Source: an uncultured Chloroflexia bacterium
Lineage (GTDB): Bacteria > Chloroflexota > Limnocylindria > QHBO01
Direction of reading: 5' to 3'
Assembly (NCBI GenBank): GCA_963814375.1
Contig: CAWFCQ010000008.1
Coordinates: 64,001-128,000, forward strand
Length of the DNA: 64,000 nucleotides
Shown here: positions 2,602-58,873 of the stretch, piece after piece
Layout: every line of letters begins with the position of its first letter
Numbering within the stretch: the stretch's first letter is position 1
Made by a program: the position numbers and the translations under genes
The notes under the pieces: model-generated
What the model saw: only the letters and a program-made list of their open reading frames with translations
Databases searched by the model: none
What the model was told of the DNA's origin: nothing

Positions 2602-2607
2602 CGCGGC

Positions 2608-2997: not shown

Positions 2998-3001
2998 CGC
3001 T

Positions 3002-4980: not shown

Positions 4981-5023
4981 GGCGGCGATGATGCCAGAGT
5001 CCGGCGCTACCATGGCCGCCCCG

Positions 5024-10041: not shown

Positions 10042-12002
10042 CGCGCACGTCCGCCGAGCGGCTGGGGCCGACGACCGAGAGCTCGGGCCAGGGTTCGGCG
10101 CGTTGGTCGATGGAAGAGCAGCCACTCGACCGCAAGCAGCACGAGGACGGCGAGCGCGATCGGCCACCACCACTCGGCGCGCGACGGCTGCGCCGGCCCC
10201 TCCGCGGCACCGCCGACGCGGCCCATCTCGATGATGCGCTGCGGATCGCCGGGCGCGACATCGGACTCATCGGCACTGAACAGGTTGACCGCCGTCGCGC
10301 CGAGGTCCGCGGCCTGGAGCTCCGGATCGTCGCTGACCGCGTGGACGGATCGGAAGCCGATGAACTCGGCGCCGGGCAGTGTCAGGACACCGCCCACCAC
10401 CGGCAGCTCGATGCCGACGCTCGACGACCCGGGAAGGTCGGTGGAGCCGGTCGTCACGACCAGCGCCCGCTCGATCCGCGGATCGACGTTGATCCGGAGT
10501 GACTGTCCGAGCCGCATCGACGAGGGCAGGAGCCCTTCGCCGGCCGGGAGCAGGTAGTCGACCAGGTTGCTCATGAGCAGCGGGAAGGCGACCTGGAGGG
10601 GCAGGTCGGACTCGCCGAGGTCGAACCCGATGAGGGCATGGCGCCTCCCGTCCGCCTCGCCGACCCCGACGAGCGGATTGCCCGCCGGCGTGCCCACGAC
10701 GCTGCGCAGCCCGGCCGCCGGCTCGATCTCGCGGGCGCGGCCGATGTGCACGGTCGTCAGATCGACGAAACGAAGCAGCGGCTCCTCCGGATCGACCCGG
10801 TCGATGAGCGGGCCGTTGATGCGACCGGTGACCGCCCCGAACGGCCCGTCCTCGCCCGGGTCGATGTAGAGGGCCGGTCCCGGCGGCGGCTCGGCCGAAA
10901 CGACGCCGTCGAAGATGAAGAGGCCATAGGGAGCGCCTTCCTCCTCGGCCCCCTGGAGTGCATCGGCGTATCCGGCTTCGTCCACGGCGTACAGCTCGAG
11001 GCGCGGGAGCAGGGCAAGGGCGTTCTCGAGATAGGCGCTGCCGTCGCCGACCAGCAGCGCGCGAGTCGTCTCCTCGGCCGGGACGATGGCGAAGGCGCGG
11101 TCGTCCGTCGCGAGTGCGTCGGATCCGGCGAGGCGCGCCTCTACACGCAGGGCGCCCGGCGGGACCGTGGTGATGAGAGCCTCCGAACGCTGGCCGGCCG
11201 GGACGTCGAGCTCGCGCGCGTCGACCAGCGCCCCGTCGGCATAGATCTCGAGGCGGCGCGTCGCATCGGCCGCAGACGGGTTGGCGACCGCGACGAAGAG
11301 GTCGAGCTGCGCGCCGCCCGCCCGGCGCAGCGCCGATAGCGCCGCGATCGCCTGGTTCGCATCGCTCGCGCCGACCTGCTCGACCACGACGCGAGTGCCG
11401 ATCCCCACCTCGGGCAGCTCGTCGCCGGCCGCATCGGTGACGACCACGACGGTGGAGTCGGTGTCACGCGCCGCCAGGGCCGATGCGAGCGCGAACGCAT
11501 CGGTCAGGTCGCCGGGCACCTGGCTGGGGAGGATGCCCTCGATCGCCTCGAGGGCCGCATCGCGGTCGTCCGTCTCGCTGACCAGGACATTGGCGCTGCC
11601 CGCGGCCGCCACCACCGTCACGCGTCCGCCGTCGGGGAGCCGCCCGACCACATCCGCCGCTCGCTCACGGGCGAGCGCCATGCGATCCTCGTCCTCGATG
11701 GCGGTCGCCATCCCGGCGCTCGTGTCGACGATGAGCACGACGTTCGCCGCCAGATCGGAGACCGTGGCCGTGAACGGCCGGACCGCGGCTGCGACCACGA
11801 GCGCCGCGATGAGGAGCTGCACCAGCAGCAGCCAGCTGAAGCGCAGCCTCTGCCACGGCGCGTTGGCCTCCACGTCGCGCACGAGCTGCTGCCACAGGAA
11901 GGTCGAGCCGACCGGGTAGTCGCGGCGGCGGAGCCGCAGCATGTAGAAGGCGACGATGATCGGCAGGCCGATGAGGCCGATCAGGGCCAGCGGGGCGATC
12001 AC
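10038..12002 (-). CDS. BatA-domain/VWA membrane protein
   Basis: PIIVAFYMLRLRR...STFLW, ANAPWQRLR, VLIVDTSAGM; C-terminal TM. Confidence 0.85.
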   Translation of the reverse strand: MIAPLALIGLIGLPIIVAFYMLRLRRRDYPVGSTFLWQQLVRDVEANAPWQRLRFSWLLLVQLLIAALVVAAAVRPFTATVSDLAANVVLIVDTSAGMATAIEDEDRMALARERAADVVGRLPDGGRVTVVAAAGSANVLVSETDDRDAALEAIEGILPSQVPGDLTDAFALASALAARDTDSTVVVVTDAAGDELPEVGIGTRVVVEQVGASDANQAIAALSALRRAGGAQLDLFVAVANPSAADATRRLEIYADGALVDARELDVPAGQRSEALITTVPPGALRVEARLAGSDALATDDRAFAIVPAEETTRALLVGDGSAYLENALALLPRLELYAVDEAGYADALQGAEEEGAPYGLFIFDGVVSAEPPPGPALYIDPGEDGPFGAVTGRINGPLIDRVDPEEPLLRFVDLTTVHIGRAREIEPAAGLRSVVGTPAGNPLVGVGEADGRRHALIGFDLGESDLPLQVAFPLLMSNLVDYLLPAGEGLLPSSMRLGQSLRINVDPRIERALVVTTGSTDLPGSSSVGIELPVVGGVLTLPGAEFIGFRSVHAVSDDPELQAADLGATAVNLFSADESDVAPGDPQRIIEMGRVGGAAEGPAQPSRAEWWWPIALAVLVLLAVEWLLFHRPTRRTLARALGRRPQPLGGRAR

Positions 12003-12891
12003 TCGACCACCCGTCTCCGTCTCAGAACGTCGAAGAGAAGATCTGCCAGGTCGAGGTCGGTGGGGACGGTGACGTAGGCGCCGCCGCGGCGCGAGACGAA
12101 GGCGGCGATCTCGGCCTGCCACTCTGCCAGGCGGTTGCGATAGCGGTCGACGAGGTCGTCGTCGCCGCTCACCTCGACTGCCTGCCCGGTCTCGCTGTCG
12201 ACCAGGCGCGCGTCGGGCGGGACCTCGGGGTCGAGCTCGTCGGGGGCCAGGATGTGCAGCACCGACAGCTGGCACCGCGTTCCCGCCAGGACGCGGAGCG
12301 CGTCGAGGTAGCCCGGATCCATCAGGTCGCTGATCAGCAGAAGAGGGCCCGGTCCCGCGCATCCGTGCGGCGTAGGTCCGCGCCGCCTGGGCGAGACCGG
12401 TCATGCGTTCGCCGCGGGGCTCCGAGAGGAACCGGAAGAGCTCGAGCGCTCGCCGCTTGCCGCGCATCGGGCGCATCGCGCTGGCCGAGCCGTCACCCAG
12501 GAACGCGACGCTGACGCGGTCCATGCTCGCCAGCCCGAGGTAGCCGAGGGCGGCGGCGGCTCGACGGGCCGCATCCAGCTTGTTCGGCTGGCCGTAGTCC
12601 ATGCTGCGGGACGCATCGACGAGGACGTGGACCGTGCACGTCCTCCTCCTCGACGAAGAGCTTGACGAAGAGCCGTTCGAGGCGGGCGTAGGCATTCCAG
12701 TCGAGCTGGCGCAGGTCGTCGCCCGGGGCGTAGTTCCGGTAGTCGGCGAACTCGACGCTCTGCCCGCGGCGGACGCTGCGGCGCTCGCCCTTCATGCGGC
12801 CGGCGGTCAGCCGCCGCGAGGCGAGCTCGATCTGCTCGAGGCGGCGCAGGAAGGCCTCGTCGAAGAGCGGGGCGCGCTCGGTTGCCGTCAC
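11999..12891 (-). CDS. DUF58 family protein (frameshifts near 12640 and 12340)
   Basis: GQSVEFADYRNYAPGDDLRQLDWN, VLVDASRSM, HILAPDELDP across three frames. Confidence 0.85.
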
Positions 12892-13044
12892 GGGCCGCTC
12901 CTCCGCGCGCACGTCCGAGGTGTCAGCGGTCCGGCGTGAGATCGTGACGTCGTCCACCGTGCAGCACGTTGTCACGCGGACCCGTGACGGTTGCGACTGG
13001 CCGCCCGAGCCGCAGTCCAGCCTTCGCCAGGACGCCATGGCCCC

Positions 13045-14075
<1,031 letters not shown>

Positions 14076-14079
<4 letters not shown>

Positions 14080-24994: not shown

Positions 24995-25003
24995 CGCACA
25001 CCG

Positions 25004-25870: not shown

Positions 25871-25925
25871 CGGGTTTGCAGACCCTCGACCGGCCTTGCT
25901 ATCCTCAGGCCCGACCTCGACGCGT

Positions 25926-26002
25926 GCCGCATTCGTCTAGAGGCCTAGGACACCGCCCTCTCAAGGCGGAGATCACCGGTTCGAATCCGGTATGCGGTAC
26001 CA
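25926..26002 (+). tRNA. tRNA-Glu (CTC)
   Basis: GCCGCAT/ATGCGGT acceptor stem, CCGCC-CTCTCAA-GGCGG anticodon arm, GGTTCGAATCC, CCA end. Confidence 0.97.
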
Positions 26003-26013
26003 GACCTTTCCTT

Positions 26014-26050
26014 CAGGCCCGATCCACGGCCGGATCGGGCCGTTTCGCTG
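26014..26050 (+). terminator. Terminator hairpin after tRNA-Glu
   Basis: GGCCCGATCC...GGATCGGGCC followed by GTTT. Confidence 0.75.
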
Positions 26051-26119
26051 CCTGCGATCGCACGTCTGACCCCTTATGGCGTTGGACCGTGACAACGGTG
26101 GATAGTCGCGCGGCCAGCC

Positions 26120-27139
26120 TCACGCTGGCATCCCTCCCGATGGCGCAGCGCGGCCAATGGCACGTTCGGTCCGGCCGCCCATCCAGTCTGCAACGAGCTC
26201 GACGTACGTCTGAGGCGCCTCCACCGGCAGCAGATGACCGATGCCGTGCACGGTGCGGAACTCCCAGGCCGGATGTAGCTCCATGAGCCCGTCGACGAGG
26301 CGGCGGGGGATGATGCGATCCTGATCGCCCCACACGACAAGCGTCGGGGCCTCGATCCGCTCCAGCTGCGCACGTACCATCCCTTCGTCGACCGTCAGGG
26401 CCGCGAGTACCGAGACGGCGGCCTGGATGGCGCCGTCGATCCGCCACGGCACGCGGTAGCGCTCGATCTCCTCGCCGATGAGGCTCAGCAGGGCCGGCGA
26501 GATGCGGGACGCATCGGCGCCCATGCGGGCCATGGTTTGGGTCAGCCGCGGATCGGTCGGGTCATCGCGCCAGCGGCGCCACATGTCTGTCTTGAGGCGG
26601 ATGCCGGCGCGCATCGGGATCCGCGCCAGCCGCGGCGCCAGGCTCAGCGCGACGCGCCAGGCCCACGCGAAGCTCGGCGGATCCGGGAGCCCGGGAAGCG
26701 CCGGACCGGTCAGTACCAGGCGCGCCACCCGCCCGGGATGCCGTGCCGCGAAGAGCGCGCTCACCAGCGCGCCCATCGAGTGGCCGTGGAGCACCACTTG
26801 CTCCAGATCGAGGGCCTGGCACAGGTCGGCGAGGAAGCGGGCGCCGTGCTCGGCGCGCCCGGCGCGCGGATCGACCGGCCGGGTGCGGCCGGCGCCGGGC
26901 AGGTCCGGCGCGATCACCGCGCCGTGGGCCGCGAGCGGTCGCATGACGTCCATCCACGACCACGAGCCGGCGCCCAGCGGATGCACCAGGAGATGCGGCG
27001 GCGCGTCACGGGAAGCGCCTGCCGCAGCGGTCCGCAGGTAGTGGACCCGGATTCCGCCGATGTCGGCGACCTGGCTGATCACTCCTGCCCAGCGCTCGGA
27101 ACGCTCGCTCCAGTCATACCCGGGCCTGACCCTAGACAT
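26120..27139 (-). CDS. Alpha/beta hydrolase
   Basis: PDLPGAG, GHSMG, VWGDQDRII, GIGH. Confidence 0.9.
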   Translation of the reverse strand: MSRVRPGYDWSERSERWAGVISQVADIGGIRVHYLRTAAAGASRDAPPHLLVHPLGAGSWSWMDVMRPLAAHGAVIAPDLPGAGRTRPVDPRAGRAEHGARFLADLCQALDLEQVVLHGHSMGALVSALFAARHPGRVARLVLTGPALPGLPDPPSFAWAWRVALSLAPRLARIPMRAGIRLKTDMWRRWRDDPTDPRLTQTMARMGADASRISPALLSLIGEEIERYRVPWRIDGAIQAAVSVLAALTVDEGMVRAQLERIEAPTLVVWGDQDRIIPRRLVDGLMELHPAWEFRTVHGIGHLLPVEAPQTYVELVADWMGGRTERAIGRAAPSGGMPA

Positions 27140-27239
27140 GGCAGCCACGATAGCCGCAGATGCTCGCGGCTCGCCGAGCGGAAGCGAAGCGCTCGAGCAC
27201 AGTCTGGCCTCCACAGGGCGAGCAGGTAGGCTTCGACGC

Positions 27240-28415
27240 ATGGAGCACATAGCCGATGTCCTGTTCCAGCTCTTCTGGCTGCTCCTCGCGGCGAAGCTGG
27301 GGGACGAAGTCTTCAAACGGATCGGTCAGCCGCCGATCATCGGCGAGATCCTCGGAGGCATCGTCGTCGGCCCGGCGGTGCTCGGCCTGTACCAGGTGAA
27401 CGCTGAGACGCTCCTGTTCGCCGAGATCGGAGTCGTCTTGCTCCTTTTCCAGGTCGGTGTCGAGACGCGGCTGCACGACCTGGTTCGCGTCGGTGGCACG
27501 GCGGCCGCCGTCGGCGGTCTCGGCGTCGCGCTGCCCTTTGTCGCCGGCATCGGTCTTGGCTTTGTGCTCGGCTATCCGATCGAGGTTGGCGTTTTCCTCG
27601 CGGCAGCGCTCGTCGCGACATCGGTCGGCATCACATCGGGGGTCCTTGGATCGCTCGGAGCCCTGGGGACGATGTCGGGTAGGGTGATTCTTGGCGCAGC
27701 CGTCATCGACGACGTGCTGGCGATGTTGATCCTGGCGGTGGCGACGGGACTGGCCGCGGGTGCCGTAAGCCCGGACCGCATTGCGATTCTGATCGGCCTG
27801 GCGCTCGCCTTCATCGGCATCGTGGTCGTTGGCGGCACGCGACTCCTACGCCGCCGGCGCTCCCTGCTCACCGACCCGGTGTTCGCGCAGACTCCATTTC
27901 TGCCCGGAATGATCATCATGCTCGGACTCGCCGCGCTGGCGGCCGCGATTGGGCTTGCCGCGATCATCGGTGCATTCCTTGCCGGCATGGTGGTCGGTGA
28001 GTCGAGCGAGAAGCACGCGCTCGAGGAAGAGGTCGCCCCGGTTGCCGCCTTCTTCACGCCCTTCTTCTTCGGGTCGATCGGCGCACAGATCGACCTCGCG
28101 GGCCTCGCCGACTGGGCCGTCCTCGGGACTCTGATATTGGTGGTCGCTGTCGCGATCACAACGAAGTTCGCCGGTGCGCTCCTAGGGGCGGTTCGGCTTG
28201 GGCGCGATCGCGCGGTGCTGATCGCAGCGGGGATGGTGCCTCGCGGCGAGGTCGGCATCGTGGTGGCAGGTCTCGGCCTGCAGCTCGGCGCGATCCAATC
28301 ATCGACGTACAGCGTCGTCGTCGGCATGGCCATCATCACGACGCTGCTCATCCCGCCGTTCCTCCCAGGCCTCGTGCGTCGGGCGGAAGGGATTCCCCCT
28401 CCGGGTGAACCCTGA
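27240..28415 (+). CDS. Cation:proton antiporter (CPA2)
   Basis: GEILGGIVVGP, ATSVGIT, AAVIDDV, GMVPRGEVG. Confidence 0.92.
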   Translation: MEHIADVLFQLFWLLLAAKLGDEVFKRIGQPPIIGEILGGIVVGPAVLGLYQVNAETLLFAEIGVVLLLFQVGVETRLHDLVRVGGTAAAVGGLGVALPFVAGIGLGFVLGYPIEVGVFLAAALVATSVGITSGVLGSLGALGTMSGRVILGAAVIDDVLAMLILAVATGLAAGAVSPDRIAILIGLALAFIGIVVVGGTRLLRRRRSLLTDPVFAQTPFLPGMIIMLGLAALAAAIGLAAIIGAFLAGMVVGESSEKHALEEEVAPVAAFFTPFFFGSIGAQIDLAGLADWAVLGTLILVVAVAITTKFAGALLGAVRLGRDRAVLIAAGMVPRGEVGIVVAGLGLQLGAIQSSTYSVVVGMAIITTLLIPPFLPGLVRRAEGIPPPGEP

Positions 28416-28567
28416 CTCCCGAATCGTTGGACGTTGTCGGCCTTCACCCGATCGCCGAGGAGCCTGAGCACGTCGTCTGGTGCGAGGAGCCCTTATCGAT
28501 CCTGTCTCATGCGTCTCTTGCGATGTACTCCGTGTACGCGGCTGAGACACATCAGACATTTCGCCAG

Positions 28568-28637
28568 GAATCCGGTATGCGGTACCAAATTCGCCATTCG
28601 CAGGCCCGATCCACGCTCGGATCGGGCCCTTTCGCTG
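28568..28637 (+). repeat. att-like copy of the tRNA-Glu 3' end plus duplicated terminator
   Basis: 20/20 match to 25983-26002; 28601-28637 matches 26014-26050 at 34/37. Confidence 0.9.
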
Positions 28638-28827
28638 TCAGCTGACCGCGGAGTGGTCCCTGTCCGGTTCCAACGGCCCAGGCGAACGCCGCGTCTCTTC
28701 CTGATCGAGCCACAGCATCGGGAATTCGATGCCGCACGTGCGGCGGGATCGAGCGTCTCGGGCGCCGCGTAGCCGAGGATCGCGTCGGAGCCGGCCCATT
28801 GCCCCGACCTGCGTCGTCGGCGTTGCA

Positions 28828-28867
28828 TAGAGGGGAGATAGAGCCGGCGTCGACGCCGCGTCGATCG
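28828..28867 (+). promoter_or_regulatory. Putative SARP-type binding array (four boxes, 11-bp period)
   Basis: TAGAG at 28828, TAGAG at 28839, TCGAC at 28850, TCGAT at 28861. Confidence 0.5.
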
Positions 28868-28938
28868 CCCTCCTGGATGGTTCCCCTGCCAGCGCGCCGC
28901 AGACGCGGCAGCGAGAGGCCAGATCAAGGAGCAAGATC

Positions 28939-29250
28939 GTGGCAACGCAGGTCACAGCAACCACCCCTCTCACCCGGCCCGCACCCCGTCTCGGCGCCTT
29001 CGAGGGCGCAATTCTCGCCGTCATTGCGGTGGCGGTCATCGGCGTAGGCGTTTGGAGCCAGGCGGGTTCCATCCGTGACGCGACCACCGACAGCCCCGCG
29101 TACGGCGTGGGCTACCCGCTTCACGGCGGCCTAGCTGGACCGAGCCGCGTCGGTCAGCTGTCGACGGTCGACCTGGCCGCTCCCTACGGGGCCGGCTACC
29201 CGCTCCACGGCGGTCTCGCCGGTCCGAGCCGCGTCGACAGCGGGGACTGA
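28939..29250 (+). CDS. Small TM/secreted protein with two copies of GYPLHGGLAGPSRV
   Basis: AAGGAG RBS, GTG start, hydrophobic segment; the repeats differ only at synonymous sites. Confidence 0.8.
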   Translation: MATQVTATTPLTRPAPRLGAFEGAILAVIAVAVIGVGVWSQAGSIRDATTDSPAYGVGYPLHGGLAGPSRVGQLSTVDLAAPYGAGYPLHGGLAGPSRVDSGD

Positions 29251-29346
29251 GCTCCGGCACGCCTCCGACGAGCCACTCGACGGCGGCCGATGTGGCCGCC
29301 GTCAATCCTTGACCCATCCTTGGGGCCTGCGGCATCGTGGGGCGGA

Positions 29347-31191
29347 ATGGAGGAGAACTTGCAGTTCAGGATCCTTGGCTCGCTATCCGTCGTCGGCAAC
29401 GGGAAAGTCGCTGCGCTCGGCCCACCAAAGCAGCGCGCGCTCCTCGCAATCCTGCTGACCCGCATCGGCGAGGCCGTGCCAGTGGAGCGGCTCATCGAGC
29501 TGCTGTGGGGCGCTGCCGCTCCACGCACCGCGGACCACTCGATCCAGATCTACGTATCGGACCTCCGCCGCGCGTTCGAGCCGTTGGGCGGATCGGACCT
29601 GCTCGTGACGCGGCAGCCCGGGTATGTCCTCGACGTGGACCCGGACTCGGTCGACGCGTGGAGGTTCGAACGCCTCGTGAAGGAAGGGACGCGGCTCCTC
29701 GAGGACGGCGACCAAGATGCAGGCCGCTCGATGATTCGCGAGGCGCTCGGCCTGTGGAGCGGTCCGCCACTGTCGGACTTTCCGTACGAGGAGTTCGCCC
29801 AGCCTGTCGCCCGGCGGCTGACCGAGGAACGCCTGACCGCCGTGGAGGCGTACGCGGCGGCCAGCCTCGAGGCCGGAAGGGTCACGGAAGCACTGGACCT
29901 GCTGACGGCGGCGGCACAGGACGATCCCCTCAGAGAGCGAGCACGGGAGCTGCTGATGCTTGCGCTCTACCGATCCGGCCGTCACGCGGATGCCCTGCGG
30001 TCCTTCCACGCCCTGCGGACGCAGCTTACCGATGAGTTCGGAGTCGATCCGTCGCCGAGCATCCGGGCGTTGTACGACCGGATCCTTGCGCACGACCCGT
30101 CGCTCGGGAAGGGCTCGGGCGCCACAGCCAGCGTTCGCGTGACGTTGGCATGCGAGGGCGCGGGGGTCGGGGGGGACCGCCTCGGAGTTGAGCGGGGCTT
30201 CGACCGGGCAGTGAGCGACTTCTCGCTGGTGCCCAGAAAAGAGAACGTGGAACTCTCAGCTTCGTACCGAGATTGGTCGGTCGTCCTCCGAGACCTGTCC
30301 CAACAGCCGCCGGCACTCATCGTCTCCCTCAACTTCCTCACGATCGATGCCCTTGCCCGCGAGCACCCTGGCACGCACTACCTGGTCTTCGACCACGTCG
30401 GCGCGGCGTCGAACGTGTCCTATGTCCACTTCCACGAGCACGAGGCCTCATTCCTGGCGGGCGCGGCGGCGGCGCTCACGTCGCAGACCGGGATCGTTGG
30501 ATTCATCGGCGGCTGGGATGCGATTCCGATCTGGGGATTCCTGGCCGGGTACGAGGCGGGCGTGCGTGCCACGAATGCTGGCGCCCGCATCCTCACGGGG
30601 TACGCCGGCGAGTGGCCCGACCCCCAGGGATTCGTCGACCTGGATCGGAATGAGGAGCTCGCACGGCAGATGTTCGCGGACGGTGCCGACGTCATCGTCG
30701 CGGCATCGGGCCCTGCGGGCATGGGGGTCGTCAGCGCAGCGGCCGCCCTGTCGGGCTCGATGGACCGCCGACTTTGGGTCATCGGTGTCGACACGGACTG
30801 GTACGAGGATCTCAGCCACAACCTGGGGATCATCAGCCCGCGCGTTTGGCGTTCGCACGTCCTGACCTCAGTCCGCAAGCGGTTCGACCTGGCCGTCTAC
30901 GAAGCCCTGCAGACCGTGGCTTCGGGCGACCGGCTTCCGCCCGTCAAGGCTTACGACCTGCGGTCGGGCTTCGTGGACATCTCGTATGAGGGTGGCTTCC
31001 TCGACGACGTCCGTCCGCTCATCGAGGATCAACGGCGGCGCATCGTCAGCGGGCAGCTGCGAGTCCCGTGCCTCCCAACCGATCATGTAGAGGTCGCCCG
31101 CTCCCGCCTCGAACAGATCGGGGTAACGATGGACGACTGGCTCGAACAGGGATGCCCGCCCTGGCGGATATCGACCGGTGACCTGCTCTAG
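29347..31191 (+). CDS. SARP/AfsR-type regulator (wHTH-BTAD) fused to a BMP-family binding domain
   Basis: FRILGSL..GPPKQRALLAIL, DPLRERARELLMLALYRSGR; then HEASFLAGAAAA, GADVI, WVIGVDTD, TSVRKRFD. Confidence 0.9.
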   Translation: MEENLQFRILGSLSVVGNGKVAALGPPKQRALLAILLTRIGEAVPVERLIELLWGAAAPRTADHSIQIYVSDLRRAFEPLGGSDLLVTRQPGYVLDVDPDSVDAWRFERLVKEGTRLLEDGDQDAGRSMIREALGLWSGPPLSDFPYEEFAQPVARRLTEERLTAVEAYAAASLEAGRVTEALDLLTAAAQDDPLRERARELLMLALYRSGRHADALRSFHALRTQLTDEFGVDPSPSIRALYDRILAHDPSLGKGSGATASVRVTLACEGAGVGGDRLGVERGFDRAVSDFSLVPRKENVELSASYRDWSVVLRDLSQQPPALIVSLNFLTIDALAREHPGTHYLVFDHVGAASNVSYVHFHEHEASFLAGAAAALTSQTGIVGFIGGWDAIPIWGFLAGYEAGVRATNAGARILTGYAGEWPDPQGFVDLDRNEELARQMFADGADVIVAASGPAGMGVVSAAAALSGSMDRRLWVIGVDTDWYEDLSHNLGIISPRVWRSHVLTSVRKRFDLAVYEALQTVASGDRLPPVKAYDLRSGFVDISYEGGFLDDVRPLIEDQRRRIVSGQLRVPCLPTDHVEVARSRLEQIGVTMDDWLEQGCPPWRISTGDLL

Positions 31192-31335
31192 CAGGCTGGG
31201 TAGCGATCCCTTCGAGTTCCTCGAACCAAGTTATGGAGCCCCTCATCAGGGCCGTCTCGGTGATATGCGGGACGCCCGTGTTCGAGCCCTTACGCCGGCG
31301 CCCGACACTGAAGCGTGACCACGTTCAGGGTTGGG

Positions 31336-34300
31336 TTATCGGCCATGTCGCGACGCGCCACGGCTCCGCTGTCGACGGGCGATGGTCACGCCGGTGGCAC
31401 CGATCGTGATCATGGCCGTGAGCAGCACCGCAACCCACAGGATTGGCGGATCGCCGGACGGTGAAGACCCTTGTGCCCCGCTCTCAGCGGCGGTATCCGG
31501 TAGGGCGCCACCAGCACCGCCACCAGCACCGCCACCGGCAGCGCCACCGCCCGTGATGAATTCGATGGTCTCCGGGTCGTTGTCGCAGCCTGGCGGTGCC
31601 GGCTCAGCCGACAGGATCACGGCCGTGACCACGTCCCCGGCAGGCAGGGTCGCGCATGCGGTCATGGTGTTCACATGCGGCGGGAACACCTGTTCGGGAT
31701 CGCCGTTCGGGGCTACGTCACTCGCGACGAAGAAGGTCTCCTCGAACATGCACGAGCTGCCCGGCGGGAGGACCGTGCCCACTTGGCAGTCGGCATTGCC
31801 GGAGAGCGCGCCAAAGACGTCGTCCTCCAGCGAAGTGATCTCGACCGGCACCTCCGACGTGTTGGTCACCGTGAACGTGAAGGTCACGTCCTGACCCGCG
31901 GGCGGGATGAGCTGATCGTCCGCGACCTTGACGACCTCAAGGCTGATGAACACGTTCACGATCGTGCACGTGAGATCTTCAGCCGGTCCCACAGTGACGG
32001 ACCCGTCAGGCGCGCAGTCGCCGCCCCAAGCTTCCGCCTCATATCCGGGGATATCGAAGATCTCCGAGGCCACATGGTCGCCGGGTGTCACCTCGTTTGT
32101 CACCCCCCATTCGACGTCGACGCCATCGATCTGTGGCTGGAAGTCGTCCGCGGTAGCGGTGCCGCCGACGACCGTCTTCAGCAGGGTCAGTGTCGGTGCG
32201 ATGTCGTCGTTGGTGATCGAGCAGGTCACCGGCTCGTCGCCGGCGGCGACGGTCACCGAGCCGGCGTCGAAGGCGCCGCCGTCACCGTTGCTGCAGGTCC
32301 AGGCGCTGGGCTCGTAGCCGAGGACGGCCAGCTCGGCCAGGGTGTAGGTGCCGGGCGCGACCTCCAGCGTGGCGGCGGTGTAGGTGAAGGTGTCGGTCGG
32401 GTCCTCGACCGCGGCGCCGAAGGTGAGCGCGCCGGCGCTGGTGGTGATGCCGAAGTCGTCGACCACCGCCGTGCCGCCGTCGTCGTTGACGACGACCTTC
32501 TCGATGATCAGCTCGATGGGCTGGTCGTCGTTGGTGATCGAGCAGGTCACCGGCTCGTCGCCGGCGGCGACGGTCACCGAGCCGGCGTCGAAGGCGCCGC
32601 CGTCACCGTTGCTGCAGGTCCAGGCGCTGGGCTCGTAGCCGAGGACGGCCAGCTCGGCCAGGGTGTAGGTGCCGGGCGCGACCTCCAGCGTGGCGGCGGT
32701 GTAGGTGAAGGTGTCGGTCGGGTCCTCGACCGCGGCGCCGAAGGTGAGCGCGCCGGCGCTGGTGGTGATGCCGAAGTCGTCGACCACCGCCGTGCCGCCG
32801 TCGTCGTTGACGACGACCTTCTCGATGATCAGCTCGATGGGCTGGTCGTCGTTGGTGATCGAGCAGGTCACCGGCTCGTCGCCGGCGGCGACGGTCACCG
32901 AGCCGGCGTCGAAGGCGCCGCCGTCACCGTTGCTGCAGGTCCAGGCGCTGGGCTCGTAGCCGAGGACGGCCAGCTCGGCCAGGGTGTAGGTGCCGGGCGC
33001 GACCTCCAGCGTGGCGGCGGTGTAGGTGAAGGTGTCGGTCGGGTCCTCGACCGCGGCGCCGAAGGTGAGCGCGCCGGCGCTGGTGGTGATGCCGAAGTCG
33101 TCGACCACCGCCGTGCCGCCGTCGTCGTTGACGACGACCTTCTCGATGATCAGCTCGATCGGCTGGTCGTGTTGGTGATCGAGCAGGTCACCGGTCGTCG
33201 CCGGCGTCGATGGTGACCGAGATCGACGTCACCGGCGTCGAAGCCGTCGCCGCCGCCGTTGCTGCACGTCCAGGCGGCACGATGCGGCCGATGACTGGCT
33301 CGCGGCGCCGGTGCAGGCGATGCCGTGAGCGTCCAGCCGGCAGGCACGTTCTCAGTCACGATCTTCCCGTCGAACTGGCCTGGGCCGAAGGTGATGGGGT
33401 TGCCCGCGAGGGCCGGCGCCCCCGTGGTGGTGATGCCGAAGTCGTCGACACCGCCGTGCCGCCGTCGTCGTTGACGACGGTCTTCTCGATGATGAGCTCG
33501 ACCAGTTGGGTGTTCGTGTAGGTGCAGGTCGAGCCGCGTCACCGGGCAGCAGGGCGATGCTGGCCAAGCCGGTGGCGAGGGTGGTCGTGCCCTTCGAGCA
33601 GACCAGGCTGGCGAGCGGTCCAGCCGAGGACCGGCGAGGTCTCCTGGATGGTCGTGTTGGTGCCGGTCGCGTCGGCGCCGGTGAAGGTGAAGGTGACGGT
33701 GTTCGCTGTGCCCGAGGCGGCGTCGTCGTCGAGGCAGAAGGTGCCGCGCCTGGAAGAGCGTCCCGCCGCCGGTGCCGGTCGTCGCGTAGGTGAAGAACTG
33801 GGCGGCATCGGGCACGGCGTCCTTGGTGACCGAGACGTGGCATCCGCGGTGTTGGTGAACGTGCAGGTCGGGGCATCCCCGCCCGTGATGACCGCGCGCA
33901 CGGTGGTGTCGCCCGGATCGAAGCCGAGGGTGGCGCCCGGGGCGAAGGTGGCGCCGATGCCGGTGCCGATGGTGATCTCGGCGCCGACGGCGGAGCACAC
34001 GATGTTCGTGAGCGTCCAGCCGGCCTCAGGCAGCTCCTGGACGTCCTTGGTCCCGAGCTGGAGGCCGCTGAAGGGGAAGGGCGCGCTGGTCGTGGGGTTG
34101 GCGACCGCGGTGTTGCGGGTGAAGGGCGCGAGGCCCGTGCCATCGACCGCGTAGTCGAAGGTCGCCGTGCCGCCCACGGTCGTCTTCTCGATGTCGAGCG
34201 AGGCGTTCTGGGTGTTGGTGTAGGTGCAGGTCACCGCGTCACCGGGCAGCAGGGCGATGCTGGCGAGGCCGGTGGCCGGATTGGTCGTGCCCTTCGAGCA

Positions 34301-37300
34301 GACCAGGCTGGTGAGGGTCCAACCGGGGACCGGCAGGATCTCCCGGATCGTCTTGGGGCCGGTCGCGTCGGCGCCCGTGAAGGTGAAGGTGCAAGGTGTT
34401 CGCGGTGCCCGAGGCGGGATCGTCGTCGAGGAAGAAGCTCCCGCCCTGGAAGAGGGTCCCGCCGCCGGTGCCGGTCGTTGCGAACTGGAAGAGCTGGTCT
34501 GCGTTGGGCACGGCGTCCTTGGTGACCGTGATGGTGGCATCCGCGGTGTTGGTGAACGTGCAGGTCGGGGCATCCCCGCCCGTGATGACCGCGCGCACGG
34601 TGGTGTCGCCCGGATCGAAGCCGAGGGTGGCGCCCGGGGCGAAGGTGGCGCCGATGCCGGTGCCGATGGTGATCTCGGCGCCGACGGCGGAGCACACGAT
34701 GTTCGTGAGCGTCCAGCCGGCCTCAGGCAGCTCCTGGACGTCCTTGGTCCCGAGCTGGAGGCCGCTGAAGGGGAAGGGCGCGCTGGTCGTGGGGTTGGCG
34801 ACCGCGGTGTTGCGGGTGAAGGGCGCGAGGCCCGTGCCATCGACCGCGTAGTCGAAGGTCGCCGTGCCGCCCACGGTCGTCTTCTCGATGTCGAGCGAGG
34901 CGTTCTGGGTGTTGGTGTAGGTGCAGGAGACGTTGTTGCCCGCCTCGATGGCCACGCTCACGGTGGTGTCACCCGGATCGAAGCCGTCGCTGCCACCGGT
35001 CTGGAAGACGCCGCTCACAAAGCGGCCGATGATCAGGCCGGCGGGGTTGCCGGTGCAGACGATGTTCGTGAGCGTCCAGCCGGGCTCGGGCGTCTCGGTG
35101 ACCATCTTGGTGCCGAACTGGGTGGCGGTGAAGGCGAAGGGCGCACTGGTCGTGGGGTTGGCGACCGCGGTGTTGCGGGTGAAGGCGGTCGGGACGTTCA
35201 GGCCGGAGCCGGTGAAGTCAAAGGTCGCGGTGCCGCCGCCCACGCTCTGCTTCTCGATGTCGAGCGAGGCGTTCTGAGTGTTGGTGAACGTGCAGGTCGG
35301 GGCGTCATCGTCCCCGAGGTCAGCCCGCACGGTGGTGTCGCCGGGTTGAAGTCGGCAGCCGCCCGGCGAGGCGAAGCCTAAGCCGATGCCGGTGCCGATG
35401 GTGATCTCGGCGCCGTTGGCGGTGCACACGATGTTCGTGAGCGTCCAGCCGGGCTCCGGCGACTCCTGGACGTACTTGACTCCGAACTGGGGGGCGGTGA
35501 ATTCGAAGGGCGCGCTGGTCGTGGGGTTGGCGACCGCGGTGTTGCGGGTGAAGGGCGTGAGGCCCGTGCCGTTGACCGTGTAGTCGAAGGTCGCGGTGCC
35601 GCCCACGCTCGTCTTCTCGATGTCGAGCGAGGCCGAGCAGAGGGCGAGCGCGAGCGCGCGGAGGGCGTCACCGAGCTCGTCGGCCGTCCCGACGAGGTAG
35701 TCGTTTGCGAGGACGTTGGCTTGGTTCGTCACCGGGCCCGCGACGCCCCAGAAGTTCTCCTGCGAGATCGTGCCGGCCCTACCGGCCCCGATCGCGAAGA
35801 CGCGCGACTCAGGCTGCGGGCCAGCGCCGTCACCGCTCTTCAGCCGGTTGGCCGACGTCACGGCCTCCGTGTAGTCGTCCCAGTTGACCTCGCCGGTGCT
35901 TGTGGCGCCGCCCGGCAGGTTGTTGGCGGTCGGGTTGCCGTCCGTGATGAAGACCACGAGGTGCGGGTTCGGGTCAAACGATGTTGCCGAGAGCTGCAGC
36001 CCGCCATCCCAGTTCGTGCCGCCGCCCAGGTTGTCGTAGATGGCTGCGATCACAGTGTCGAGGGTGCCGTTGCTGGCCTGGACGTTCTGGTAGGGGGAGC
36101 CCAGGGGCGAGGCCGCCGACGCCGTAGCCGCGAACGACACGATGCCGATCTCGGTGTTGGTGCCCACGAGGTCATTGACGAAGGCGAGCGCCGCCGTCTC
36201 GTAGTTGGCGGACCCGTTGTCGTTGATGGAACCCGACCGGTCGAGCACGAGCACGACGCGGAGGAGGTCCGCACACTGCAGGGCAGGGAGCGGCGGGTTC
36301 ACCCGGCTGTTGGCGAACCAGTCAGTCACCTTATGGCTGTTCAGGCCGTTGTTGGCGTTGCCGTCGACGACGAGAGGATAACCATCGAAATTGGGGCTCC
36401 GGTCGGCCGCGGGATCACCGTAGCGGTGGGCCGCGTACGGCAGCGGGGGGTTGTCGATGATGAACGAGCCGGGGGCCCAAGTAGTGATGGTGTTGAAGGC
36501 GGGATTCGAGACGGAAATCTCCTGGACCCAGTAGCCGCCAGCCGCGAGGTTCACGAACACGCATTGCCCGGCCGCCGCGCCCCCGGCGCCAGTCACGCAG
36601 CTGGTGACGAACACGTCACCGGTGCCCGGCTCGAACTCGCCGTCGCCGTCGTCTCTCCAGAGGCCCATCGTCGCGCCGTTCAGTGGCTGGTTGGTGCCAT
36701 CGGCTGCGCGATCCCCCCACTTGCGCGCCGTGATCGTGCTCAGGGCGTTGGCCCGCGGATCGGAGAGGCGGAAGTGGGCGACGCTGCAGACTGCCCAACC
36801 GGGGTCAGTCACGCCTTCCGCCGTCGTCTCGTTGAGGCGTGCGGCGATCGAGTTGTCCTCCTCCCCGAACAACGTGGCGCCAACCGAATCGCACTCGAAG
36901 CCCGTCAGCTCCCATCCAGGCGGTGGCTCGCCGGTGTCGTCTCCCGGCTCGGTGGGGCCGGGTGGCACCGTGACGAGAGGTCCGACCTCGATGACACGGT
37001 AGTGGCGGTCGGGATCGAGTTGGTCCCACGTGAAGGATTCTCCGTGGCTCAGAGTCACAGGCTGCGGATTGGTGATGGTGGGACCGAACTCCTCCGGATT
37101 CACCCACAGGCGCGTTGGCTGCGGCGTGCACGCCGTGGTGCTTCCGGTCTCGCTGCATTCCTCGAGGAAGAAGTTGAATTCAGCGGCGGGATCGACACTG
37201 GCGCTGACCGTGACCGTGAACGTCCAGGGGTCCCGGGGGACACCTAGCCCGCCCGGGTCATCGATGGTGCCGTCGGCGCGGAGGTCCTCGTCGCCGGCCC

Positions 37301-38009
37301 CGCCGTCGACGAGTGTCACCGTGACCTCGTCCGTGGCGTGGTCGGCGTCGGCGCGGGCTGTCAGGTCCGACCAGCGCCCGTTCTGGAGGACCCAGAACTC
37401 GGTATCGACTTCATGCCTGATCGTGCCATCCGGGAGATGGAACGTGACGGCGGCTGCATCGCCTGGCTCCGCGACCACGACTTCGTATTCGAACAGGCCG
37501 GCGGGGAAGAAGATGCCGGGTGGCGGCGGGGGATCCGTGGGGACCGATACGGCGCGGACGTTCTGGAGGATCGTCCCTGGCGGCGACTCGACGGTCACCA
37601 GGTCGTCGAACGCACCGTTACGGTCGATGTCGGCGGCAGCGACCAATGTGACACGGTTGCGTTCAGTGCTCGCGCGCGAGTCTGCTGGTGCAGATGCCGA
37701 TGTCCCGGGCGCCGGCGATGCCAATTCATCGGCACTCGACGATGGCGGCGCGGATTCGACTGGTGGGCTCGCCTCGGGCAATAGAGCCGGGTCCGAGCTG
37801 GGTTCAGCCGACGAGCTCGCCTCGGGCGACGCCGACGGCTCGGGTTCGGGCTCTACGGACGGCTCGCCCTCCTGCTGCGATCCCGGAGCAGGCGGATCTT
37901 GGGCGATGACCGGGGCAGGGACCGTGATGACGCTGGCCAGCAGCAGTGCGGCCTGCAGCAGAACGATGCCCCTGAAGGAGGCTCGCACGCGGTGAGGAGG
38001 CTGCGTCAC
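31336..38009 (-). CDS. Giant cell-surface adhesin with VWA domain, repeated SpaA/CnaB-like modules and LPDTA-TM tail (frameshifts at about 33160-34400)
   Basis: Signal peptide after GTG 38009, VLDRSGS MIDAS, repeated IEK...C..TN modules, LPDTA + TM + basic tail. Confidence 0.8.
32203..33159. repeat. Three apparently identical 321-bp tandem repeats (107 aa)
   Basis: Units start at 32203, 32524 and 32845; degenerate fourth from about 33166. Confidence 0.95.
33506..34927. repeat. Tandem duplication with ~697-bp period
   Basis: 33837-34230 matches 34534-34927; the rest of the unit is similar with indels. Confidence 0.85.
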
Positions 38010-38061
38010 TCGTATCCCTCGAGTCGGACGCTCGGGACCGAAGGGTGGCACATCGATCGTG

Positions 38062-38097
38062 GGAATACAATGCGTATGCTGGAATACATTGCGGATG
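38062..38097. promoter_or_regulatory. 17-bp direct repeat pair upstream of the adhesin
   Basis: GGAATACAATGCGTATG and GGAATACATTGCGGATG, 19-bp period. Confidence 0.45.
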
Positions 38098-38132
38098 GGC
38101 AGGCCTGACCACGCGGATCCACTTTTCATAAG

Positions 38133-38152
38133 GAATCCGGTATGCGGTTCCA
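38133..38152 (+). repeat. Third att-like copy of the tRNA-Glu 3' end
   Basis: GAATCCGGTATGCGGTTCCA, 19/20 match. Confidence 0.85.
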
Positions 38153-46899: not shown

Positions 46900-49800
46900 T
46901 CAGTCGAACACCCGGCCGCTCAGAGACGGCCCGTCCTCCGGCGTCAAGGTCGCCGTCAGGCTTTCGAGCAGCGCGCGTGCGCGGGCCGCGCCCGGGATGA
47001 CCTCCTTCGCCTCGTAACGTCGAAGCGCGTCGCCGGCCGCCGTGGCCGCCTCCTGGTAGCGCCCGCTTACCCGGAGGACCTCGGCCAGGTCCATCAGCGC
47101 CTCCGTCTGGGTGTCGACGCGATCAGTCCGCAGCGCAAGCTCGACGGCGTCTCGTGCGAGCTGCTCCGCCGCGGTCGCCTCGCCCCGGTGGGCGAGCAGC
47201 AGCGCCCGCGCACCCCGCCAGGACACCTGGGCGGCCACCCAGCTCTTCGCGCTCGCCTGTTCGGCGGCCGTTGCGAGCTCATCGGCCTCGTCGAATCGGT
47301 CCAGTGCGTAGAGACAATGCGACAGCCATCCGGCGGTGAGGGCGAGGTAGCTCTTGTCGCCCATCGACGATAGCCCGTCGTATGCCTGCCGCAGCTCTCG
47401 CTCGGCCGCCTGCCAATCGCCGCGGACCATCTCGACGAAGTAGCCGAGGCCCTCGCCCCGACTCATCGCAGCACCGGGAAGGTCGCCGAGAACCTGCCGA
47501 TCCGCGACGCCCTTGAGGATCATCTCGCGAGCCGCGTCGCGCTCACCGAGCATGCCGCGCAGCTGGCCGAGGAAGCACAGGGCATAGGCCTCCGCACCGC
47601 GGTGACCGCGCACCCGCTCCAGGACCTCCGAGCCCTCCACGAGTGCCCGCGACGCGGGCGTCGGTCCGAACGAGAGCGCGACGATGATGCCGACAAGGTC
47701 GTCGTGCGGGTAGTGCGGGTCCTTGGCCCGCAGGTCGAACTCGTACGCGCGCTCGGCGGGCTCGCGCATGCCCTCGAGCTGGCAGAGCCCGTACCGCGCC
47801 CAGCTCACGAGACGCCATGCGCGAGCCGCACTGAAGTCGTCGCCATTCGCCTCGCATCGCGCCGCCAACGCCAGCCCTTCGGCCTCGAGCTCGGCATAGT
47901 CCACGTCCGGGTCGACCTGGAATCGGAGGCGCAGCTCCGAGAGATGCGATCGGACTCGCGTGCGCTCGTCACCCGCCCGTTCGGCCAGCTCGATCGCCTC
48001 GGCCAGGGCCTCGTGTGCCTCGTCGAATCGCCCTGCCCACAGCAGTGCGTCGCCGAGGTCACCGAGCAGCTGCGGGCGTCGGCCGTCGTCCGGCGACATC
48101 AGGGCCAGCGCGCGAGATCGGAGCTTGATCCCCGCCGAGGTGTCGCCACGCGACGAGGCGGTCCACCCTGCCCCGGCCAGGCGGTCGGCCGCGCGTCGCG
48201 CCAGGTCGGCACCCCTGTCGTCGATCGGACCCAGCTCGGCGAGATACCGATAGCCCCGTTCGAGATGCCAACCCGCGATCTCCGCGTACTCGGCCAGCCG
48301 ATCGCCGGCAGTCGCCTCGAGCCAATCGGCGAAGCGCGCGTGCAGGTCCGCCCGGGACTCCTTGGTGACCCCGTCGTAGGCGGCGTCCCGGATGAGCAGG
48401 TGGCGGAACTCGAACGCCTCCTCGTCGCGGAACTCGGATCGAGTGGGACGGATGAGTTCCTTCCGCACGAGCTCGAGCAGCATCGACGGGATCCGGGGTG
48501 CAAGCTCCGGAGGCGACAGCTCGGCAACGGCGCCGACGTAGAACGTCTGCCCCATCACGGCGGCGCGGCCGAGCAGGGAGCGCTCGTCGCTGCCCAGGAG
48601 CTCCAGTCGTGCCGCGAGCAGCGCATGGATTCCCGGCGGGATGGTGATGTTGTCGAGATCGCCCACCGCGACCCAGCGACCGTCCACGCGCTCGAGCCGC
48701 CCGTCGTCGATGAGCATCGAGATCATCTGCTCGATGAAGAGCGGGTTGCCCTCGGCCCTGGCCGCGACGTGATCCCTGACCTCCGCGGAGCCCTGCGGCT
48801 CGCCGAGCAGCTCGGCGATCAGCCGATCGCAGGCCGCGTCGTCCAGTGGCTCCAGCCTCACGATCGTGCTCGGGGCCGCGCCGGCGGTGTGGCCCCACTC
48901 CGGACGTCGATCGAGCAGCTCCGGCCGGCTGGTGCACAGCAGGACGATCGGCACCGATTCGGTATGACGGGCAAGGTTCTCGACGAGCTCGAGAAGCGTG
49001 TCCTCGGCCCAATGTGCATCGTCGAGAGCCACGATCAGTGGGCGCTCGGCCGCGATGGTCGCGAAGAGCTTTCGGACCGCCCAGGCGCCCTCGGCCACCA
49101 CGGCGGTCGTCTCTCTGAGGCCGGTGAGGTGGGCAATGGTCTCGGCAATCGACCGGGCATCGCCATCGGGCTCGAGCAATGCCTGGATTCGAGCCACGCT
49201 CGCGTCCGGTCCGTCGCTCTCGTGAATGCCCGCAGCCTGCCTGACCATCTGGGCGAGCGGCCAGAACGTGATCCCCTCGCCGTACGGAAGACAGCGTCCG
49301 CTGAGCACGGTCGCGTCTCCGTCAACGGAGGCGACGAAGTCCTGGACGAGGCGCGACTTGCCGATGCCCGGTGCTCCGACCACGGTGACGAGCCGGCAGC
49401 TCCGCTCGGCGATTGCCCGCTCCATGGCCCATTCAAGCTGAGCGACGGAGTCGCGGCGGCCAACGAGGGATGCGTCCGGTCGGTACGCACCGGCGGGGTG
49501 CTCACCGATGCCGATGAGACGATAGGCCGCGACTTTGCCCTGCTTTCCCCTGAGGGCCAGCGGCGCCAACGGCTCGGCTTCGGCCGAGTCGCGAACGAGC
49601 TTGAAGGTCGACTCGGCCATCAGGATCTCGCCGGGCTCAGCGTGCTGCTGGAGACGAGCCGCCGCGTTCGCCGCATCACCTGCAACGAAGTTGCGGTCGG
49701 GGACGATGCCTCGCCCGGCCACCGTGCCGGTGTTGATGCCCGTCCGCGTCGCGAGCGCAATCGCCGTAACGCGGCATGAACAGGTCGCCGTTCATCCGCG

Positions 49801-58300: not shown

Positions 58301-58873
58301 TTGCCTGCCGGGGCGAGCACGGGAGCCGAGTTCGGCGGCGGCGAGACCGTCACGGCAGGGTTCGAGCCGGACTGGGCGAACAGCTGACCAGCGCAGTTGT
58401 TCTGGCCGAAGGCCGTCGTCGTGAACGTCAGGCTGCCCGCGGACGCGGCGGTCCCGGTGAAGGTCACCTGGACCCGTCCATTGGTGTCGATGTCGTTCGC
58501 AGCCACACCGCTTCGGACCGTCTGTCAATGCCCCCAACACAACGGTCGGCGCACTCCAGGTTCGGGCGGTCCCGGGTGGAATTGGCGGGTCCTGGGCGAG
58601 GACGGTCGGGGTCCCGCTCAGCGTGAATCCAGCTGGCATCGTCACGCGCACACAGCCCATCAGCGTCTGTCCCGGGCTGACGCTGACATTGTTGAACGTC
58701 ACTGTGAAGGTTGTCGGCGTGCCTGCCACTGCTGTCGTGGGACTGATCGTGGCGGTATTGATCTGGACTGCCGCGACCGGCATCGGGCCGGCGAGCGCCG
58801 CAACCAGCGCGCCGACTTGGACGGCGACGAGGGCCAGCCGTCGCGCTGACGTGCCGGATCGACGATGGTGCAT
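55346..58873 (-). CDS. Surface protein with tandem ~91-aa Ig/cadherin-like repeats and LPDTA-TM tail (3 frameshifts)
   Basis: Signal peptide; repeated VNDAPVCADD..TDEDT..DVDGD..FTYTP..FNGTDSFTF; PT linker, LPDTA, TM. Confidence 0.85.
55650..57550. repeat. About seven diverged 273-bp tandem repeats
   Basis: gtcagcgtgtcaccgtcgacatcggtgca recurs near 55806, 56079, 56352 and 57172, with variants near 56899 and 57446. Confidence 0.85.

Follow-up and report, generated by a model that had tools for sequence, protein, structure and literature searches.

A small repeat-protein gene beside a SARP-Bmp regulator in Chloroflexota: a candidate AfsR/AfsS-like two-gene module with a predicted exported product

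What is the role of a small protein that carries two identical peptide cores behind a hydrophobic segment, and is it functionally tied to the SARP-type regulator encoded next to it? The question is raised by a 103-codon gene at 28939-29250 in a stretch of 64,000 nt from a Chloroflexota genome (GCA_963814375.1, contig CAWFCQ010000008.1, positions 64,001-128,000 of the forward strand); this whole stretch is referred to below as the window, and its numbering is used for all window coordinates. An earlier reading of the letters alone (hereafter the sequence-only reading) had regarded the gene product either as a multi-core precursor released by proteolysis or as the carrier of a His-containing binding motif, and had placed gene and regulator in a signalling module of unrecognised type. 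In the present analysis, we consider it moderately probable that the two genes form an AfsR/AfsS-like module with an exported small product, in which the small gene would serve as the dedicated target for the SARP-Bmp regulator encoded beside it. The evidence consists of a family of related small proteins, the conservation of their repeat, the recurrent linkage to the regulator and a set of conserved boxes upstream of the small gene.

A family of small proteins built on a repeated motif

The open reading frame (ORF) at 28939-29250 is a real gene of an unnamed small-protein family, whose members were seen only in metagenome-assembled genomes of Limnocylindria-type Chloroflexota. A word-indexed search matched 300 proteins at E<=0.01, a profile built from 59 members matched 420 cluster representatives at E<=0.001, and an all-length HMMER scan of 1.84 billion representatives (50% clustering) returned 46 proteins at E<=0.001. 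No fused forms were found in the HMMER scan, the true members being at most 204 amino acids long; four longer matches among the 46 (462-1323 amino acids, E 1e-5 to 7e-5) were rejected as unrelated proteins with another repeat, of the GYTFGGWY type. No Pfam or NCBIfam model matches the small protein. In the ESM Atlas only 'hypothetical protein' clusters were retrieved, with scores of 0.81-0.85 that are below the meaningful level, and the strings HGGLAGPS, GYPLHGG and GLAGPSR occur in no searchable paper.

The C-terminal tail of the small protein is Gly/Pro-rich and holds the core GYPLHGGLAGPSRV twice (29110-29151 and 29194-29235). At the DNA level, the repeat finder reported a pair of 52-nt units (29101-29152 and 29185-29236) with 85% identity and an 84-bp period. 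The two 14-codon cores differ at five codons, and all five differences are synonymous (Nei-Gojobori sd=5, nd=0, S=12.2, N=29.8), as the sequence-only reading had stated; an all-synonymous outcome for five random substitutions was obtained in 237 of 200000 trials. Judging from this codon comparison together with the family-wide conservation, the repeat is under purifying selection, and the same view taken in the sequence-only reading is borne out. Its description of the spacers as unrelated is correct only in part: the first is the linker that follows the helix, but the second, STVDLAAPYG, is of an inter-repeat type that is conserved among relatives, and the repeated unit is therefore nearer 18-28 amino acids.

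Copy numbers and a motif consensus were derived from the 164 family-search proteins listed, which together contain 406 motif instances. Two to four copies per protein are typical, with two copies in 65 proteins, three in 81 and four in 5; a single copy was counted in 6 proteins, and none in the remaining 7 (four unrelated long proteins, two truncated or frameshifted ones and one variant). The consensus reads [H/A]-Y-G-x-G-Y-P-L-H-G-G-L-A-G-P-S-R-[VIL], an 18-mer of this motif being YGAGYPLHGGLAGPSRVD. The core is flanked upstream by Y-G-x and downstream by R and a hydrophobic residue, and the last core is followed by an acidic tail. The core G, Y, P, G, G, L, A, G, P and S residues are conserved in 92-100% of the instances, whereas the core His is the least conserved position (H in 83% and S in 8%; S, N, Q or R together in 13%), which weakens the proposal of a His-containing binding motif. 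The motif is near-invariant although relatives share just 36-50% identity overall. Since the N-tail differs between subfamilies and the repeats alone are conserved, the motif appears to be the conserved functional element.

Two departures from the common architecture were noted within the family. In the protein P0131, an ordinary N-tail and helix precede a C-terminus with three copies of a different repeat, SNMGQYDVDNMGGTPAAGAAV; either a frameshifted reading or the exchange of a repeat cassette may account for this. The subfamily comprising the protein of loci L012/L013 (see below), P0141, P0148 and P0150 has a C-terminal extension of about 40 residues that ends in ...DNQRF.QVD.

For the small protein of the window, AlphaFold2 (59-row alignment) predicts a single helix at residues 18-48 with pLDDT up to ~90, the rest being coil with pLDDT ~50. 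The short N-tail contains two Arg, the uncharged span has a median length of 23 residues in the family, and the charge bias corresponds to an N-in/C-out orientation in 145 of 153 family members, with 4 ties. The hydrophobic segment noticed earlier before the cores is real. Because the charge bias puts the N-terminus inside, the repeats are predicted to be outside the cell, and the helix may serve as a signal anchor or as a long signal peptide. The residues SQA/GS after the helix fit the -3/-1 rule, while the length of the span is that of a membrane span; the tail is thus predicted to be anchored, or to be released if SQA/GS is a signal-peptidase site.

The linked regulator and the upstream boxes

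The linkage counts rest on 13 loci obtained from one genome_contigs scan, all of them in Chloroflexota metagenome-assembled genomes (MAGs) labelled Chloroflexia, Limnocylindria or Limnocylindrales. L012 (1-237) and L013 (5737-6096) are halves of one small gene, interrupted within its repeat where the two contigs end, and the number of distinct loci is therefore 12. A SARP-Bmp regulator adjoins the small gene in 10 of the 12, in either gene order. The small gene of L001-L006, like that of the window, is directly upstream of a regulator of ~610-630 amino acids that consists of a winged helix-turn-helix (wHTH), a BTAD and a Bmp domain; the L005 regulator, of which the first 79 residues are visible before the contig end, was grouped here by similarity. 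In L007-L010, the small gene is directly downstream of a long regulator with the architecture wHTH-BTAD-nSTAND1-(membrane span)-Bmp, which is cut at its 5' end in L007, and the small proteins of these four loci are 36-50% identical to that of the window. No regulator stands beside the small gene in L011, which shows 450 bp downstream only, or in L012/L013. One MAG carries two whole copies of the module, each a small gene with a short regulator, on different contigs (L003 and L006). Upstream of the module in L003, two small ORFs (958-1474, minus strand) were observed that were not seen in other loci, one of them with a weak, sub-cut-off match to Pfam Frankia_peptide (24.9 bits vs 48).

The upstream element of the small gene comprises about 115 nt and travels with the gene. 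It contains four direct-repeat boxes in exact 11-bp phase and a -10-like hexamer, followed by a small hairpin and then the Shine-Dalgarno sequence (Table 1). In an alignment of the 300 nt before the small gene (window and L001-L006), 85 of 121 positions are invariant over 28825-28945, as against 7 of 185 over 28640-28824, and the relatives start with GTG or ATG in the same column as the GTG of the window. Despite the reversed gene order in L007-L010, the same element is found there between the regulator stop and the small-gene start. The four-box pattern occurs once in the 64-kb window even at <=3 mismatches, with 0.02 occurrences expected by chance. It was found exactly, once each, in 8 of the 13 loci, always just upstream of the small gene, and with one mismatch in L006 and three in L009, where it is most degenerate. 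All 10 regulator-linked loci therefore possess the pattern (8 exact, 2 with mismatches), while it is absent from L011 and L013 at <=3 mismatches.

According to PMC10936776, SARP targets are direct repeats 11 or 22 bp apart with the 3' repeat 8 bp from the -10, and at afsS the box overlaps a poor -35. The box layout in the window has the same spacing, with an 11-bp phase and a last box 8 bp from the -10-like hexamer. A consensus promoter and terminator scan of 28400-29500 called nothing, and the missing sigma-70 -35/-10 pair before the small gene fits an activator-dependent promoter. The SARP-type boxes to which the sequence-only reading had drawn attention are hence present and conserved among relatives; their layout appears specifically SARP-like, and they are probably bound by the neighbouring regulator. 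Its proposal of a two-gene module tied to a SARP/BTAD regulator is likewise upheld by the adjacency in 10 of 12 loci, with boxes that follow the small gene, so that the homologs do show a link to SARP regulators.

The listed ORF of the regulator begins at 29290, but 29359 is where its tblastn match with the L008 regulator sets in, and the N-termini of the L008 and L009 regulators read MDFRLLG, so the TTG at 29359 is most likely the start codon. Pfam identifies Trans_reg_C (6.5e-09), BTAD (1e-43) and Bmp (118.2 bits vs a cut-off of 24.1), in agreement with the SARP-BMP regulator recognised earlier from the letters; the Bmp alignment starts at profile position 40-92 in 10 of 10 regulators. In a comparison of a profile of 58 relatives with solved structures, the best match of the SARP part was AfsR (8K60, 8JKE, 8HVR; E about 3e-62), followed by EmbR. 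The C-terminal part matches solved PnrA, TmpC, Lbp, BmpA/D and Med, the Med structure (PDB 2HQB) having been deposited as 'transcriptional activator of comK gene'. According to PMC13325309, an aromatic sandwich and a ribose-binding Asp/Lys mediate the binding of nucleosides by solved Bmp proteins. The regulator resembles such nucleoside-binding lipoproteins in that its C-terminal domain matches Pfam Bmp above the cut-off as well as solved PnrA and Med, but here the domain is fused to a SARP module and is found without a lipoprotein signal and without an ABC operon.

The location of the Bmp domain appears to vary among relatives. A membrane span is lacking in the window regulator (highest 19-residue Kyte-Doolittle mean 1.65), whose Bmp domain is for this reason predicted to be cytoplasmic. 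In L007, L008 and L010, a membrane span is situated between the NTPase and Bmp (Kyte-Doolittle 2.17-2.53), with an Arg-rich stretch just before it, whereas the span is absent from L009 and from all short regulators. Among 40 long homologues, 28 reach a Kyte-Doolittle value of 2.0 and 12 are below. Depending on the relative, the Bmp domain would thus be extracellular or, as in the window, intracellular. In total, 1904 regulator relatives at E<=1e-10 were found among 8000 candidates scored; short and long architectures are both common, and one long match is labelled Geodermatophilaceae. A literature search on SARP, BTAD, Bmp and nSTAND1 gave nothing on this architecture among the matches listed, and there is no searchable paper with both Limnocylindria and SARP.

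Two of the long regulators are irregular. That of L009 (2821-5745) lacks the first third of Bmp in addition to the membrane span, its Pfam match beginning at profile position 92. In L010, the long regulator (2576-5831) is read in two overlapping frames, 2576-5128 and 4455-5831, which may reflect an assembly frameshift or a pseudogene. Between the small gene and the regulator of the window, the hairpin at 29282-29300, uncalled by the terminator scan, is a possible (leaky) terminator or attenuator, and the sequence at 29309-29338 may be the regulator's own promoter.

Table 1. Features of the small gene, its regulator and the surrounding window
Feature	Position	Strand	Remarks
MoxR-VWA cluster	7117..14079	-	MoxR-type AAA_3 ATPase, DUF58/BatA-VWA protein, large VWA protein
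tRNA-Glu(CTC)	25926..26002	+	integration hotspot upstream of module
Alpha/beta hydrolase	26120..27316	-	inside 2.6-kb insert 26003-28567
Na+/H+ exchanger	27060..28415	+	inside 2.6-kb insert 26003-28567
tRNA-Glu 3'-end copy 2 and flanking hairpin	28568..28642	+	20 nt exact, 28568-28587; right border of insert
Four direct-repeat boxes, putative SARP-type operator	28828..28865	+	TAGAG 28828, TAGAG 28839, TCGAC 28850, TCGAT 28861
-10-like hexamer GATGGT	28876..28881	+	GATCGT in most relatives; 8 nt past heptamer TCGATCG 28861-28867; by-eye reading
Shine-Dalgarno AAGGAG	28926..28931	+	7 nt before GTG; kept in aligned relatives
Small gene, 103 amino acids, GTG start	28939..29250	+	N-tail 1-17, hydrophobic helix ~18-40, disordered tail with two motif copies
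Motif copy 1, YGVGYPLHGGLAGPSRV	29101..29151	+	direct reading, repeat finder, codon comparison
Motif copy 2, YGAGYPLHGGLAGPSRV	29185..29235	+	direct reading, repeat finder, codon comparison
GC-rich hairpin GGCGGCC-gatgt-GGCCGCC	29282..29300	+	kept in 6 of 7 aligned loci, diverged in L005; no clear U-tract
TTGACC, 18 nt, CATCGT	29309..29338	+	conserved in alignment; uncalled by consensus scan
SARP-Bmp regulator	29359..31191	+	wHTH ~29422-29631, BTAD ~29650-30087, Bmp/PnrA-like ~30262-31068
Large surface-protein genes	31336..38129	-	SpaA-type prealbumin-fold and VWA domains
tRNA-Glu 3'-end copy 3	38133..38152	+	1 mismatch; right of SpaA/VWA surface-protein block
yaaA	39530..40303		
AAA_16+TPR (MalT-like) protein	46903..49722		
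Cadherin-like/Big_9 surface proteins	55349..58506		

The tRNA-Glu neighbourhood and other neighbours

Apart from the regulator, the neighbours of the small gene vary by locus and include SnoaL, PNPOx, metallo-beta-lactamase fold, amidohydrolase, YaaA, ECF sigma factor, DUF885 and response regulator-cyclase genes. Across the 12 loci, the conserved neighbours include neither a protease nor a transporter nor a modifying enzyme, which confirms the earlier remark that no modifying enzyme is adjacent. Near the small gene of the window, no protease, exporter or importer was seen; its neighbours are a Na+/H+ exchanger and an alpha/beta hydrolase inside an insert, and SpaA-like proteins.

The sequence-only reading had described the module as lying in an att-bounded cassette. 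Copies 2 and 3 of the tRNA-Glu 3' end (the last 20 nt of the tRNA, 25983-26002) do enclose the small gene and the regulator, together with the SpaA/VWA surface-protein genes, but the description is misleading because in relatives the pair adjoins tRNA-Glu or yaaA. An intact tRNA-Glu is located 350-450 bp upstream of the small gene in L005 and L006, tRNA-end remnants were found upstream of it in L001 and L004, and yaaA directly follows the regulator in L003 and L006. These arrangements suggest that the gene pair is a long-standing neighbour of tRNA-Glu. The sequence to the right of copy 2 is similar to what flanks the native tRNA in L005 and L006. It is most likely that variable DNA was inserted on either side of the gene pair. 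The possibility that the pair is cargo of the 2.6-kb insert was rejected, as the pair is to the right of that insert. No integrase was seen around the three tRNA-Glu end copies of the window. Rfam at E<=1 over 25000-34000 detected the tRNA and chance miRNA matches inside the SpaA repeats only, with no riboswitch or leader.

The flank of tRNA-Glu is a hotspot in other loci as well: a GntR-PBP gene occupies it in L011, and in L001 a SnoaL gene is flanked by two remnants. The SpaA/VWA block of the window, which is missing between the regulator and yaaA in L003 and L006, includes three 321-bp tandem units that are 100% identical (32203-33144) and further 300-nt repeat families (33837-35565).

Comparison with AfsR-AfsS and alternative explanations

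The layout of the module, with a SARP regulator, an adjacent repeat gene and boxes in the promoter of the latter, is recognisable as that of AfsR-afsS of Streptomyces, contrary to the sequence-only reading, in which the module was not recognised. In PMC10832544, AfsR is reported to activate the adjacent afsS directly, and AfsS-like proteins are described as poorly conserved, all with 2-5 repeats. According to the same paper, AfsS binds AfsR and strengthens its DNA binding, the repeats are needed for binding AfsR, and the mode of action of AfsS had been unclear for decades. The similarities to the present system include the N-terminal wHTH and BTAD of the regulator, for which AfsR is the best solved-structure match, and the STAND-type NTPase (nSTAND1) that follows the SARP part in the long relatives of L007-L010. 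An adjacent small repeat protein is likewise shared (2-5 repeats in AfsS-like proteins and 2-4 here), and so are direct repeats in 11-bp phase over the -35 region of the small gene, 8 bp from the -10.

The following mechanism may be proposed. The Bmp domain, which has a periplasmic-binding fold of the PnrA type, would bind a small ligand, in the cytoplasm in the case of the window and outside the membrane in the long relatives. The AfsR-like wHTH and BTAD part would then bind the boxes and turn on the small gene, whose promoter, lacking a usable -35 and with 8 bp between the last repeat and a -10-like hexamer, has the layout in which SARP dimers recruit RNA polymerase. The small protein would be inserted N-in/C-out and would display or shed its linear, multivalent motif on the external side of the membrane, where the motif may bind a conserved partner. 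The gene-control part of this mechanism appears well supported by sequence comparison.

Several differences from AfsR-AfsS exist. The boxes are four here and two in the afs box, the host belongs to Chloroflexota and not to Actinomycetota, and the repeat is presumably unrelated in sequence to that of AfsS. Other observations weigh against an AfsR/AfsS-like module. The sensor is Bmp/PnrA-like, in place of the TPR of AfsR, and the NTPase is absent from the regulators of the window, L001-L004 and L006. The small protein has a membrane helix and a predicted exported tail, whereas AfsS is soluble and cytoplasmic; because the small protein is predicted to be exported and the window regulator is soluble, the mechanism of AfsS is not simply transferable. 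The tie between regulator and boxes is circumstantial, coming from adjacency and box type, and the two most divergent subfamilies (L011 and L012/L013) have neither an adjacent regulator nor boxes at <=3 mismatches. Finally, as all 13 loci are from one bacterial class, some of the conservation reflects relatedness. With no TPR, no NTPase in the window and a partner that is not cytoplasmic, the pair is best regarded as a variant that would work like AfsR-afsS at the level of gene control and not as a member of that family.

Multi-copy precursors with identical cores, the copy number of which varies between relatives, are known in yeast alpha-factor and the cyanobactin precursor PatE, and the present family has the same two properties. 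The exported tail could accordingly be a precursor that is cut into diffusible signal peptides of 13-18 residues, to be sensed by the Bmp domain outside the cell in the relatives with a membrane span, or after import in the case of the soluble form in the window; the loop would be autoinducing, since the regulator would switch on the precursor gene. This explanation is compatible with an exported tail in which 2-4 near-identical cores alternate with variable spacers, and the conserved Arg and hydrophobic residue after each core, together with the acidic tail after the last one, are possible cut sites. An activator-type promoter on the small gene beside the regulator gene would provide positive feedback, and in L007, L008 and L010 the Bmp domain follows the membrane span and would be on the same side as the repeats. 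However, peptide pheromones usually diversify, whereas the core is almost invariant between relatives that are 36-50% identical overall, and no conserved neighbour in the 12 loci is a processing or modifying enzyme; these two features fit a precursor poorly. Neither are a protease, an exporter or an importer conserved in these loci or seen near the window gene, solved Bmp-family proteins bind nucleosides or similar small molecules, the Bmp domain of the window is predicted to be cytoplasmic, and the hydrophobic span, at ~23 residues, is longer than expected of a cleaved signal peptide. The RRNPP cassettes of Firmicutes (Rap-Phr, PlcR-PapR and NprR-NprX), in which an exported pro-peptide gene stands beside a cytoplasmic regulator with HTH and TPR-like domains, are similar in having a small exported-protein gene next to a regulator. 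They differ in that the regulator here is an OmpR-type wHTH with BTAD fused to a PBP-fold domain, the motif is near-invariant and not diversified, the hydrophobic segment is of membrane-span length and no Opp link was seen. A cleaved precursor is thus rather unlikely, and the release by proteolysis put forward in the sequence-only reading was not supported. Quite unlikely is the specific form of an autocrine peptide circuit in which a SARP one-component receptor with Bmp senses peptides from a self-induced, membrane-anchored multi-copy precursor; if true, it would be a bacterial counterpart of multi-copy pro-hormones and provide the first peptide ligand for a Bmp-family domain.

Alternatively, the small protein may physically modulate its regulator, as a feedback partner in the manner of AfsS or ToxS. 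With long membrane-spanning regulators, the external Bmp domain would serve as a docking site for the repeats of the small protein, likewise external; with short soluble regulators, its cytoplasmic N-tail or its helix would recruit or sequester the regulator at the membrane. The two genes are linked in either gene order, their products have matching topologies in L007, L008 and L010, and AfsS provides a precedent in binding AfsR via its repeats and strengthening DNA binding (PMC10832544). Nevertheless, the regulator is without a membrane span in 8 of 11 linked cases (window, L001-L006 and L009; L005 by similarity) and could not meet external repeats there, and the N-tail is not conserved across subfamilies, only the repeats being so. 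We regard such a partnership as unlikely. A complex prediction for the Bmp domain of the window (residues 268-614) and the exported tail (44-103), run without controls and with a separate alignment for each, gave 0.00 and 0.01 vs a mark of 0.32, and has no weight on either side of the binding question. It is very unlikely that the two genes have no functional tie at all, so that their adjacency would be due to shared ancestry, the boxes would be bound by another factor and the motif would have a structural or metal-binding role in the envelope. The origin of all loci from one class, the two loci with a small gene but no regulator, and the presence of His and Tyr in the motif would agree with this. 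Against it, the boxes accompany the small gene even though the gene order is reversed between groups, the remaining neighbours all change between loci, the boxes are specifically SARP-like with the neighbouring regulator as the only BTAD protein found in the window, and the His is replaced (by S, N, Q or R) in 13% of the motif copies.

An AfsR/AfsS-like module with an exported product is therefore the interpretation that we prefer. Nearly all that is known of SARP regulators and of the AfsR-AfsS pair comes from actinomycetes, in which antibiotic production is under their control. The present module would extend the same logic to a barely studied soil class of Chloroflexota, with the twists that a Bmp sensor is placed inside or outside the membrane and that the partner is exported. 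The analysis also adds about 420 unnamed proteins to one definable family. With one promoter, one regulator and one 18-residue motif, the module may serve as a compact two-gene system for asking what such repeat proteins do.

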